Assembly (NCBI GenBank): GCA_016708565.1 | Contig: JADJFN010000001.1 | Span: 540,863 to 604,862, forward strand | DNA: 64,000 bases | Source of the DNA: Myxococcales bacterium | GTDB lineage: Bacteria > Myxococcota_A > Polyangia > Haliangiales > Haliangiaceae | Direction: 5' to 3' | In this document: in pieces, positions 24,915-27,250 of the stretch | How positions within the stretch are numbered: the stretch's first letter is position 1 | How the letters are laid out: each line of letters begins with the position of its first letter | Translations under genes and position numbers: made by a program | The notes under the pieces: model-generated | Seen by the model: only the letters and a program-made list of their open reading frames with translations | Database searches by the model: none | Told to the model about the DNA's origin: nothing

Positions 24915-25739
24915 TCAGCGGGCGGCCCAGGCGGCGGGCTCGGCGGCCTCGATCTCGTGCCAGCGCAGCGGCGTGAGCCTGGACTCGGCGAGGCAGCGGA
25001 CCGCGCCGGCGAACGGCGCCGTCGTGGCGCCCAGCGCGATCAGATCGCGCCAGGCGTTCGCGCGCGAGCGTGGGTTGGCCTGCGGTGAGAGGATCTCGTC
25101 GAGCTGGTGGTCGGCGGCGGCGACGAGGCGGTGGCGGTCGATGCGCAGCGTGTCGCGATGGAGGCCGCACGTGGCGATCGTGGCGGTGCCGCGGGGCGGC
25201 TTGCCCGTGAGCGCGCCGGTGGTCGGGTCGACCTCGAAGTGACGCCACGGGGCATCGTCGTCGAAGCAGTTGAGCAGGAGCGGCGCGTGCGTGCGGTCGC
25301 GCTTGGTAGGGCGCCAGCGCGCGGGTGGCGTCGGCGTCAGCGGGAACACGGTCTCCTTGTACTTGCGATTGCAGACGGTGCAGGCGAACAGGTAGTTGGT
25401 CCAGTCGTACGCGCGCCACCAGTAGCCAGTCTTGCTGCGCTCGATCGTGGCGCGCGAACCAGTCCGAAGGTTGGCGACCCCCGGCCGCGCTTCGTCGCCC
25501 CAGGTCGTGGGATCGTCGCTGACGTCGGCGACCGCGTGCTTGGGCGCGTAGTGCTCGACGTCGGCGTCTTGGGTGCCGGCGACGTAGCTCTCGCAGTAGC
25601 CGCACTTGCCGTGCTGGGCCTGGCTGAACGCGGCCTTGTGCGGCTTCCAGACTGTCTCGTCAAGGCGCCCGCGCGCGCGGGGGCGCGGCGTGCCCTTGGC
25701 GAAGCCTGGCGGCTCCGGTGGTCGCTGGAAGCGGATCAT
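24915..25739 (-). CDS. HNH endonuclease (PtuB-like), second gene of a Septu-like two-gene defence module
   Basis: HNH signature CGYCE...DVEHYAPK...N...CTVCN. ATG overlaps the ATPase stop (ATGA). Confidence 0.75.
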   Translation of the reverse strand: MIRFQRPPEPPGFAKGTPRPRARGRLDETVWKPHKAAFSQAQHGKCGYCESYVAGTQDADVEHYAPKHAVADVSDDPTTWGDEARPGVANLRTGSRATIERSKTGYWWRAYDWTNYLFACTVCNRKYKETVFPLTPTPPARWRPTKRDRTHAPLLLNCFDDDAPWRHFEVDPTTGALTGKPPRGTATIATCGLHRDTLRIDRHRLVAAADHQLDEILSPQANPRSRANAWRDLIALGATTAPFAGAVRCLAESRLTPLRWHEIEAAEPAAWAAR

Positions 25740-27250
25740 CGGCGGCTGGTGCGCGCGGCGGGCTTGGTCTTGGCGGTCGGCTTGCGAGGCGAGGGCTTGC
25801 TCGATGGCTTGCCCGAGGCCTTGGGCGGCGCCTTGCCCGGCGGCTTGGCGGGCCGGTAGGTCGGCGCTGGCTCGCGTGCGCTGGTCGCTGGCTCGCGCGC
25901 ACCGGTCGGTTCGTCGAGCGCGGCGAGCCTGGCCCGGACCTCGCGCACGACGCGCTCGCGGTCTTCCGCGGTGATGTCCTTGCGCTGCTGCATCTTCTCG
26001 TCGTGGAGCTGCGCGATCACGTCGAGCGCCATGCGCTCGTACGAAGTGTCGGCGAAGCCGTTGAGCCGTACGCGCAGCTCTTGTTCGAGCGCGCGGCGCT
26101 CCGGGTCGGACTCGGGGCGTCGCGCGAGCAGGAGCTCGCGGTGGCGGTCGAGCTTGCGCAGCGTGGACTCGTCGAGCGTCGAGCCGAGCCCGAACCAGTC
26201 GCCGGTGAGCAGCCGGTTGGCGTCGGTGCCTGGCGGCACGTCGCGCTGGGTGATCGAGATCTGGCCGGTCGCTTCGTCCTTCTGCAGCACGAACACTTCG
26301 CCCGGGCGGGTGCCCTGCAGCGTCAGCGGGTTGTGCGTGGTGACGACGAAGGTGGTCTTGGGGAACGCCGCGCGCAGGCGCGGGATGATGTCGAGCTGCC
26401 ACTTCGGGTGCAGGTGCAGGTCGAGCTCATCGACCAGCACGACGCACGGCATGTCCTTGGCGAAGTTCTCGTCGAGCTTGCCGGTGTCGCGGTAGCGGTC
26501 AGCCCAGCGGGCGATCAGGTCGATGGTCCAGCCGAGCGTGGTCAGGTATCCGTCGCTCAGGCTGTTCAACGACGTCGCGCGTCCTGTTGAGCTGACGACG
26601 AGGACCTCGTCGGGTTCCACGAGCAAGTGGTCCACATCGGGCAGGAGGGACGCCAGCACCGTTGTCACGGCGTTGAAGAACCCGGTCGCCTGCAGGTCTC
26701 GTTCGGCGCGGAAGGCCTCTTGCTGAAGCCACGTCGCCGCATGGATCAACCGCCCGTGTTGGCTGAAGAGCGTGCCGGTCGCGCGGCGCGGCTCGAAGTC
26801 CACATCACGCGCCGGGCCACCTAGGGCCGTGCCTCGCATCGATCCATAGGAGAAGACATCGAGGCCCCCCGCCGGGTGGGCAATCGCCGCGATGGTGGTC
26901 CGGGGATCGAATTGCCACCGGTGGTCGCCGAGATTCGAGCGCACCAGGACGCGGCTGTTTGCGCCGAAGACGCGGTTCCACTCGAGCAAGTCGAGGATGC
27001 CCGGCGTCGAGACGGCGGCGTCGGCGAGACCCAGGGTCACGGCGCGCAGCAACGTGCTCTTGCCCACGCCGTTCGCGCCAAGAAACACGGCCCATTGACC
27101 GCCATCCTCGATGTCCCTTGTCGGGAGCGCGAGCCGCATCGCGCCAAGGACGCCGGCGTCCTTCAGGTCGACCTGGTCGATCCGGACCGCCGGGGCGCCC
27201 GGCCCGCGGGTCAAGCGGCGAGCTTTCTCGTTCTTCTCGGTGGTCGCCAT
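25736..27250 (-). CDS. AAA_15/AAA_21-type ABC-like ATPase (PtuA-like), first gene of a Septu-like module
   Basis: Walker A GANGVGKSTLL. Walker B/D-loop VVLVDELDLHLHP (the LHP signature of AAA_21). 504 aa with a Lys/Pro-rich tail. Confidence 0.75.
   Translation of the reverse strand: MATTEKNEKARRLTRGPGAPAVRIDQVDLKDAGVLGAMRLALPTRDIEDGGQWAVFLGANGVGKSTLLRAVTLGLADAAVSTPGILDLLEWNRVFGANSRVLVRSNLGDHRWQFDPRTTIAAIAHPAGGLDVFSYGSMRGTALGGPARDVDFEPRRATGTLFSQHGRLIHAATWLQQEAFRAERDLQATGFFNAVTTVLASLLPDVDHLLVEPDEVLVVSSTGRATSLNSLSDGYLTTLGWTIDLIARWADRYRDTGKLDENFAKDMPCVVLVDELDLHLHPKWQLDIIPRLRAAFPKTTFVVTTHNPLTLQGTRPGEVFVLQKDEATGQISITQRDVPPGTDANRLLTGDWFGLGSTLDESTLRKLDRHRELLLARRPESDPERRALEQELRVRLNGFADTSYERMALDVIAQLHDEKMQQRKDITAEDRERVVREVRARLAALDEPTGAREPATSAREPAPTYRPAKPPGKAPPKASGKPSSKPSPRKPTAKTKPAARTSRR

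Follow-up and report, generated by a model that had tools for sequence, protein, structure and literature searches.

In a 64,000-nucleotide stretch of the Myxococcales bacterium assembly GCA_016708565.1 (contig JADJFN010000001.1, positions 540,863 to 604,862; this whole stretch is called the window here), we identified a pair of genes, ptuA and ptuB, that in all likelihood constitutes a stand-alone (type I) Septu anti-phage system, a reading to which we give a probability of about 0.85. The locus is a Septu system of known type from uncultured Kofleriaceae that had gone unlabelled until now, with the source records naming its two proteins 'AAA family ATPase' (PtuA) and 'hypothetical protein' (PtuB). 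Every sequence- and structure-level feature of stand-alone Septu for which we checked was found, and the features checked for the retron form were absent. As a Septu system the locus is routine; what makes it useful is the natural experiment that surrounds it. What is out of the ordinary is the population pattern, in which one fixed slot and one chassis carry many unrelated-looking N-terminal halves of PtuA. The operon itself consists of the following elements:

25736..27250, minus strand: ptuA, ABC-type (AAA_21) ATPase of the Septu family, 504 amino acids, ATG start (open reading frame, profiles and fold)
24915..25739, minus strand: ptuB, 274-amino-acid HNH nuclease with a helical C-terminal domain (open reading frame, profiles and fold)
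25736..25739, minus strand: ATGA overlap, with the ptuB start codon on the ptuA stop codon (sequence)

The two genes are translationally coupled, and their 4-nt overlap is kept in 10 of the 10 related loci examined, even with PtuB only 42-51% identical. The PtuB of the window is identical to IPH44_02395. Both proteins were classified with the profile hidden Markov models (HMMs) of PADLOC-DB v2, where the PtuA1/PtuA model gave the best E-value for PtuA (4.1e-60) and the PtuB1/PtuB model that for PtuB (1.1e-39); for each protein, nearly all of the top 25 matches were PtuA or PtuB models. A preliminary description of the locus, made from its sequence, had proposed a Septu-type (PtuA/PtuB) architecture and a PADLOC run as a check, and at the profile level this check came out in its favour. 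The family profiles agree in this respect with matches to solved structures, with the predicted folds and with invariant catalytic residues, as detailed below.

In Pfam, PtuA matched AAA_21 (3.6e-15). When a profile of 50 PtuA homologues was compared with the PDB, it matched E. coli Septu PtuA (8ee4, 2.1e-32) and retron IA PtuA (9n69, 1.8e-32), and the single sequence likewise matched PtuA of both retron I-A and E. coli Septu. The AlphaFold2 (AF2) model of PtuA has a predicted local distance difference test score (pLDDT) of 82.7, and its best 50 PDB fold matches found with Foldseek are all PtuA chains at E-values of ~1e-18, including 8eea, 8ee4 and 8sux. The motifs and domains of the two proteins map to the window as follows:

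27053..27079, minus strand: Walker A of PtuA, GANGVGKST (G58-T66) (sequence; G58, N60 and K64 invariant in 50 homologues)
26546..26560, minus strand: ABC signature of PtuA, LSDGY (231-235) (S232, D233, G234 and Y235 at least 90% conserved; downstream edge of the variable half)
26420..26443, minus strand: Walker B and D-loop of PtuA, VVLVDELD (270-277) (L272, D274 and D277 invariant in 50 homologues)
26327..26341, minus strand: H-loop of PtuA, TTHNP (304-308) (T305 and H306 invariant; aligns with 'ITTHSP' of solved PtuA)
25913..26170, minus strand: PtuA residues 361-446, helical C-terminal extension (AF2 model with four helices; near-invariant among alleles)
25739..25912, minus strand: PtuA residues 447-504, basic Lys/Pro-rich tail, disordered (pLDDT <50)
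25356..25604, minus strand: HNH core of PtuB with Cys4 zinc site (C46, C49, H63, N115, C120, C123, N124 and K128 invariant in 49 homologues)
24924..25196, minus strand: helical C-terminal domain of PtuB, residues 182-272 (five helices, AF2 model)

All of the motifs that the preliminary description had quoted for the 504-residue ATPase, namely Walker A (GANGVGKSTLL) and the stretch VVLVDELDLHLHP, are present. The latter spans V270-P282 over Walker B and the D-loop and aligns with 'LIDEIELHLHP' of solved PtuA; E275 within it is the putative catalytic glutamate. None of the Walker A, Walker B, D-loop and H-loop residues varies across the 50 homologues, and LSDGY is the counterpart of 357-LSDGQR-362 in Ec78 PtuA (PMC12819146; PDB sequence alignment). 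By analogy with solved complexes, residues 361-446 are predicted to be the docking site for PtuB. The 58-residue tail that follows is rich in Lys, Pro, Ala and Ser (…AKPPGKAPPKASGKPSSKPSPRKPTAKTKPAARTSRR), is found in the close clade only and varies there; we can speculate that it might add non-specific nucleic-acid affinity. In many other members of this ATPase family (P0215, P0217, P0219 and others), a PtuA-like ABC head lies near residues 1150-1450 of giant fusions of 1300-1700 amino acids.

The ATGA-coupled HNH protein of 274 residues, also put forward in the preliminary description, was confirmed in the sequence with its motifs CGYCE (46-50), EHYAPK (62-67, quoted there as HYAPK) and CTVCN (120-124). 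The catalytic His and Asn, whose absence on alignment had been named there as grounds for giving up the proposal, are present and invariant, with the H63 codon at 25551-25553. In a profile search of the PDB, PtuB matched retron I-A PtuB (1.7e-5) with H63 aligned to H57 of Ec78 PtuB, a residue whose replacement (H57A) abolishes both defence and toxicity (PMC12819146). Judged by its residues, the HNH site appears catalytically competent, with the Cys4 zinc site and the His-Asn-Asn set intact. The AF2 model of PtuB (pLDDT 94.8) has a single significant PDB fold match, Ec78 PtuB (9nnb_J; E 2.3e-5, probability 1.0, full length), with a template modelling (TM) score of 0.61 when normalised on the target. 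The profile also aligns the C-terminal domain, weakly, with its counterpart in Ec78 PtuB.

The population pattern resides in the first half of the ATPase, which is delimited by comparison of alleles:

26561..27250, minus strand: hypervariable N-terminal half of PtuA, residues 1-230 (allele comparison)

Among six alleles (P0001-P0006), residues 1-230 are 33-52% identical while the core of 215 residues (231-445) is 93-99% identical. The related locus L002, with flanks 98% identical to those of the window, is near-identical over the upstream gene ffh, the spacer and the first ptuA codons, then essentially unalignable with indels from ~27243 to ~26560, and again ~97% identical from LSDGY onward. 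A sliding-window comparison against seven relatives recovered the same block in each case (ffh 96-100%, 27250-26600 ~50%, then 92-99%), with a sharp breakpoint at about 26560 from which DNA identity recovers. Alleles P0004 and P0005 illustrate this at the protein level, with cores 99%, tails 98% and N-terminal halves just 43% identical. The pair P0002 and P0018, on the other hand, is 72% identical in the N-terminal half and only 72% in the core, and the P0002 core is 98% identical to that of the window; because of these identities, the trees of the two parts disagree and their histories differ. Both PtuA's C-terminal extension (361-446) and PtuB's C-terminal domain (182-272) are near-invariant among alleles, and in L090 and L091 PtuB varies in smaller patches, at residues ~80-113 and at its very C-terminal end.

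Variation within this half peaks at residues 21-50 and 71-130; over 71-130 the per-10-residue identity is 0.06-0.31 and indels are numerous. Between them and beyond lie conserved islands at 51-70 (Walker A), 131-150 (YGS-RG-ALGG) and 171-180. The AF2 model folds the variable stretches, with good confidence, into the strands at the N-terminus, a pair of short helices and the outer beta-sheet of ATPase lobe I. When the N-terminal half of the window allele was searched exhaustively with HMMER against 1.84 billion representative proteins, it returned nothing but the protein itself below 1e-30, all others being at most 49% identical, so this version is so far unique. A tblastn search of the 64 kb for donor cassettes or paralogues with 17 PtuA and 7 PtuB homologues matched only the locus itself. 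We also considered a diversity-generating retroelement and rejected it: in place of adenine-specific changes to a short repeat, the differences comprise many indels and a nucleotide divergence of ~50% across 690 bp, and there is no reverse transcriptase nearby.

Our tentative reading of this pattern, to which we would give a little less than even odds, is that residues 1-230 are a naturally exchangeable specificity cassette and that a wild Kofleriaceae population would, by recombination and under frequency-dependent selection from phages, keep many ancient sensing alleles (33-52% identical) on one near-invariant chassis in a fixed slot after ffh. No mention of a hypervariable PtuA was found in the literature searched, which was itself incomplete, and newness is thereby unproven.

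Codon usage was compared with 28 genes of the window, in which the mean G+C content at third codon positions (GC3) is 0.949 (sd 0.032). The preliminary description had noted less GC3-extreme codons in both genes, citing more GAA, CAA, AAG and TTC; this holds for ptuA, and there for its N-terminal half. The GC3 of ptuA is 0.889 (z = -1.85); GAA accounts for 26% of its Glu codons (background 5%) and CAA for 31% of its Gln codons (background 4%). The N-terminal half of the gene stands at a GC3 of 0.848 (z = -3.1) against 0.944 for the core. At 0.920 (z = -0.9), ptuB is indistinguishable from the background, and AAG and TTC are uninformative on reduced GC3 because both end in G or C. For ffh and secA (50149..53397), with which a comparison had been proposed, GC3 is 0.973 and 0.982. 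The codon anomaly is thus confined to the N-terminal half of ptuA and does not extend to the whole islet.

Presence and absence of the pair at its site were followed by scanning the Ffh of the window against one genome per species, which gave 80 Kofleriaceae/Haliangiales loci, and by screening these with tblastn for ptuAB. The relevant flanking genes, and the segment that is missing from one close relative, L009, are:

27322..29016, minus strand: ffh (SRP54), upstream flank (Pfam SRP54 1.7e-73, SRP_SPB, SRP54_N)
24068..24847, minus strand: pirin gene, downstream flank (Pfam Pirin 2.1e-31, Pirin_C)
24838..27333, minus strand: 2.5-kb segment in the window that is missing from L009, comprising ptuAB and both spacers (blastn)

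L009 lacks ptuAB, with an Ffh that is 99.1% identical and flanking DNA that is ~96% identical to those of the window. Its sequence runs from the ffh stop codon through 7 nt to the GTG start of pirin, and blastn places the junctions at window 27334 = L009 8683 and window 24837 = L009 8713. In the other 79 species (Ffh 72-92% identical), tblastn found neither ptuAB nor pirin after ffh. The order ffh-ptuA-ptuB recurs in about nine related assemblies (L001, L002/L003, L007/L008, L089-L092 and L093/L094), in which Ffh is 94-99.8% and flanking DNA 87-98% identical. L001 and L007 have ptuAB after ffh with flanks merely 87-91% identical in DNA, and L093, with Ffh at 95.7%, has PtuA 53% and PtuB 42% identical in the same slot, a whole-module variant. 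In L093/L094 (7001-9273), PtuAB after ffh is followed by a gene for an SNF2-family helicase with DUF3670 in place of pirin. Further homologues, with PtuB 51-58% identical, lie in unrelated contexts.

The pair is therefore an accessory, presence/absence-variable insert in the ffh-pirin gene string of one subclade of Kofleriaceae (Myxococcota). In this sense the horizontally acquired islet next to ffh that the preliminary description envisaged is supported by the presence/absence check it proposed among related myxobacteria, with the empty site of L009 and the 79 species without the pair at the site. Recent arrival is not: because L001, L007 and L093 all carry ptuAB after ffh, the insert probably occupied the slot since before the subclade diversified and would be old there. 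It is the N-terminal half of ptuA that is the recently exchanged piece, and the insert itself is old. Since more distant relatives carry the pair, the empty site of L009 is explained more simply by secondary deletion than as the ancestral state, with identities of Ffh and flanks taken as only rough proxies of phylogeny. In the near-identical strain L002, a 31-bp deletion in ptuB at 8512-8513 (corresponding to window 25197..25227) causes a frameshift and a 222-residue product, which may have inactivated the nuclease gene in this strain; its ptuA is intact.

Four other explanations were weighed against a stand-alone Septu system with an exchanged N-terminal half. One is that the pair serves as effector in a type I-A retron ('type II Septu'), a system whose PtuAB is silenced by a reverse transcriptase and multicopy single-stranded DNA (msDNA). 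This would suit the PDB comparison, where chains of retron I-A PtuA come out best for the single sequence, and the NCBIfam models matched, which are built on PtuA and PtuB of retron Ec78. However, ffh and pirin directly flank the operon, leaving no space for a reverse-transcriptase gene, and Rfam returned zero families at threshold over the whole 64-kb window, hence no retron RNA. The NCBIfam equivalog scores are far under their cut-offs, the PtuA profile fits stand-alone E. coli Septu PtuA equally well as retron PtuA, and Walker A lies at residue 58 here, whereas Ec78 PtuA has ~35 more N-terminal residues that contact the reverse transcriptase (PMC12819146). We consider this explanation extremely improbable and largely refuted already. 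Because neither a reverse transcriptase nor retron RNA is adjacent, the pair is assigned to the stand-alone type, for which Walker A/B and HNH mutants have been reported to abolish defence (PMC13096335). Among the six nearest genes, PADLOC found no other defence genes. A housekeeping ABC ATPase of repair or chromosome maintenance (RecF, RecN or SbcC-like) with its nuclease, kept by synteny next to ffh, is a second explanation, close to the SbcC/RecF-type repair protein with conserved synteny that the preliminary description named as speaking against Septu, and it might be suggested by the recurring ffh-ptuA-ptuB order and by weak P-loop-level matches to SMC_N, AAA_23 and RecF. Those matches, though, span only ~25 residues around Walker A (E = 0.006-0.04), with no full-length match of PtuA to RecF (E = 0.04) or SMC_N (E = 0.006) found. 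Moreover, a relative whose Ffh is 99% identical lacks the pair, as do 79 other species in the family, and neither replacement of half the ATPase between near-identical strains nor the frameshifted ptuB of L002 is expected of a core repair gene; this explanation is very improbable.

Could the mosaic be an artefact, produced by chimeric assembly of mixed strains in metagenomes? All of the sequences do come from metagenome assemblies, and contig L089 breaks just upstream of ptuA. Yet the same block and downstream breakpoint occur in seven independent assemblies (NCBI, JGI, ENA and Logan), in each of which the reading frame is intact over both junctions; the window allele P0001 is recorded in JGI, Logan and ENA, and the PtuB cluster P0121 on six contigs, one of them of 1.74 Mb. 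With in-frame junctions recurring in independent assemblies from four sources, we regard chimerism as having hardly any chance of being the cause. Less far-fetched, although still unlikely, is a module of Septu origin that has lost its defence function and persists as a selfish, toxin-like addiction cassette or as a remnant in decay; variability of the N-terminal half would then reflect relaxed constraint rather than selection for new specificities. Turnover is indeed seen in the loss from L009 and the frameshift in L002, PtuAB by itself is toxic in some systems (PMC12819146), and the N-terminal half of ptuA has low GC3. Decay would be scattered, however, unlike the sharp-edged replacement of a whole block, and at least eight alleles all have a full-length open ptuA frame with strictly conserved islands in the variable half (51-70, 131-150 and the helix at 171-180). 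The AF2 fold of that half is also confident: for residues 11 to 340, taken in blocks of ten, pLDDT never falls below 69 and is at least 82 in all blocks but one.

Several observations weigh against the reading of the locus as a working stand-alone Septu system with a sensing half. The profile searches proposed in the preliminary description succeeded for the ATPase (AAA_21) but left the Pfam HNH match of PtuB under its gathering score (16.9 vs 21.4 bits), and the NCBIfam Ec78 equivalogs missed their cut-offs (NF041760 for PtuA with 93.9 of 500 bits, NF041761 for PtuB with 19.1 of 150 bits). The global TM-score of the PtuA model against solved PtuA is only ~0.5, a superposition that is not tight and that would fit a multi-domain protein modelled as a monomer. 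The system is dispensable, having been lost in L009 and frameshifted in ptuB in L002. The correspondence drawn below with msDNA-binding residues of Ec78 rests on an approximate offset in a region that is unalignable by sequence, and we infer the link between the hypervariable half and sensing. To our knowledge the clade is known from sequence alone, and we know of no phage of these uncultured bacteria.

If the window pair works as its solved and tested homologues do, PtuA would oligomerise into a scaffold, and its helical C-terminal extensions would, in pairs, grip PtuB by its helical C-terminal domain. While bound to ATP, PtuA would hold the nuclease silent until a phage-derived cue sensed by PtuA led to release or activation of PtuB, which would then cut nucleic acid and stop phage replication at the expense of host growth. 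A role in phage resistance would have indirect support from the accessory distribution of the pair and from its turnover of alleles. In the solved complexes, PtuB's C-terminal domain is sandwiched by a pair of PtuA C-terminal extensions (PMC12819146). E. coli Septu is described as a 6:2 PtuA:PtuB complex with a nuclease inhibited by ATP binding, and Septu substrates are said there to vary by system, with plasmid nicking, single-stranded DNA or tRNA-Tyr as examples (PMC12640716).

The population pattern suggests that the specificity-determining part would be the N-terminal half, in which the loops and outer beta-sheet of ATPase lobe I surround the conserved Walker A island. This half would be swapped as a block by homologous recombination, with one crossover in the conserved end of ffh and start of ptuA and the other at the signature motif or the conserved second half of ptuA. 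Near-clonal strains could in this way bear differing sensing alleles on a chassis for catalysis and nuclease docking that stays constant. The regulatory msDNA of Ec78 is bound by loops in lobe I of PtuA (K119, R126 and R163), elements that vary from one PtuA lineage to another (PMC12819146); by the ~35-residue offset of Walker A, an approximate mapping, the three residues fall at ~84-128 here. Two Bacillus Septu variants were escaped through different phage genes, tail fibres for one and other genes for another, which the authors read as the variants sensing different components (bioRxiv 10.1101/2022.08.27.505566). Both the msDNA loops and the variant-specific escape are consistent with the hypervariable half being the sensing surface.

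A block that is naturally swapped within constant surroundings points to the part on which tests of specificity in stand-alone Septu could be made. The allelic series comprises at least six alleles that share essentially one ffh flank, one PtuA core and, in part, one PtuB but have unrelated-looking N-terminal halves; the empty site (L009), the whole-module variant (L093) and the frameshifted ptuB (L002) can be added to it. Should the cassette reading prove true, this series would mark the trigger-recognition surface of stand-alone Septu.

The genes ffh, ptuA, ptuB and pirin are all co-oriented, with ffh on the strand of ptuA and separated from it by 71 bp, and with 67 bp between ptuB and pirin. 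A scan for promoters and terminators found no promoter-like sites and a single terminator-like site, located inside ptuA, compared with 1.8 expected by chance; there was none in the spacers. With no such elements found in the spacers and with pirin following ffh after 7 nt at the empty site, transcription of ptuAB by read-through from ffh is plausible. RNA folding of the two spacers gave z = 0.11 and -0.42, leaving structure there unsupported. As to signs of mobility, the flanking direct and inverted repeats are short and at chance level, and a target-site duplication was not found. The G+C content of the window is 74%, and mechanical lists of open reading frames are therefore crowded.

Downstream, a 153-bp deletion at ~24067/24068 relative to both L002 and L009 removes the final ~31 codons of pirin together with its stop, then the spacer, and also cuts off the 3' end of a convergent gene starting at 23104 on the plus strand. 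A run-on 'pirin' reading frame of 407 residues (23624..24847) results from this deletion, which could be genuine or else an assembly error. Upstream, 30717..33311 on the plus strand encodes an 864-residue bacterial homologue of the major vault protein (Pfam MVP_shoulder 8.4e-21 and Vault_3 3.5e-11), and this relative of the eukaryotic major vault protein is kept at the same position in L002. Two conserved neighbours have no Pfam or PADLOC match: a 396-residue gene at 29102..30292 on the plus strand, which is paired divergently with ffh in all relatives, and one of ~414 residues at 21156..22400 on the minus strand.

Among known systems, the locus shares with the stand-alone Septu PtuAB of E. 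coli (PDB 8EE4, 8EE7, 8EEA and 8SUX) an operon in which the ATPase gene precedes the HNH gene without a reverse transcriptase, an ABC-fold PtuA with a helical C-terminal extension, and a PtuB with HNH and helical C-terminal domains. Septu of Bacillus was reportedly described by Doron et al. in 2018. Structural alignments with stand-alone Septu give just 15-18% sequence identity to the PtuA of the window, the distance from the Walker A helix to the signature is ~190 residues in 8ee4 compared with ~165 here, and the window PtuA differs in its LSDGY signature and its disordered 58-residue Lys/Pro-rich tail. The retron PtuAB of Ec78/Eco7 and Ec83/Eco4 provide the best single-sequence and fold matches, including the alignment of PtuB H63 with H57, and have the Walker B, D-loop and H-loop pattern in common with it (DE-x-DLHLHP ... 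TTH-P). In contrast, the reverse transcriptase, non-coding RNA and msDNA found there are missing here, and the window PtuA is without the N-terminal extension that binds the reverse transcriptase.

The best-scoring PADLOC models for the window proteins, PDLC00292 and PDLC00288, are PtuA models of 726-733 positions, in which the window PtuB matches the N-terminal part (92-244) and the window PtuA the C-terminal part (308-718). Because these ~730-position models match both proteins, single-chain HNH-ATPase fusions exist in the family; in them HNH comes first on one chain, whereas the window encodes separate proteins with the ATPase gene ahead of the nuclease gene. Sister proteins with an ATPase core 49-58% identical have a fused N-terminal domain instead of a separate HNH partner. 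In P0028, P0038, P0059, P0060 and P0072, among others, the core is fused to PF01048 (named 'nucleoside phosphorylase' by JGI) or to PF13676/PF08357, which we take to be TIR-type. The ATPase family is thus modular as to effector, and the fused sisters belong to this wider modular family and not to Septu proper.

More distant comparisons can be made on two sides. Gabija GajA, OLD-family nucleases and PARIS AriA likewise have an ABC or AAA_15/21-type ATPase that controls a nuclease in phage defence, but they use a TOPRIM nuclease, which the window pair does not have; no GajA-, OLD- or AriA-type PADLOC model was among the best 25 matches listed. The restriction subunit HsdS of Type I systems, with its swapped target-recognition domains, and the hypervariable mod genes of Type III systems resemble the ptuA alleles in combining a conserved chassis with a specificity segment that is exchangeable as a block between close strains (for one example, PMC1557822). 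They belong to an unrelated protein family whose variable block reads DNA sequence, and the likeness to PtuA is therefore one of analogy only.

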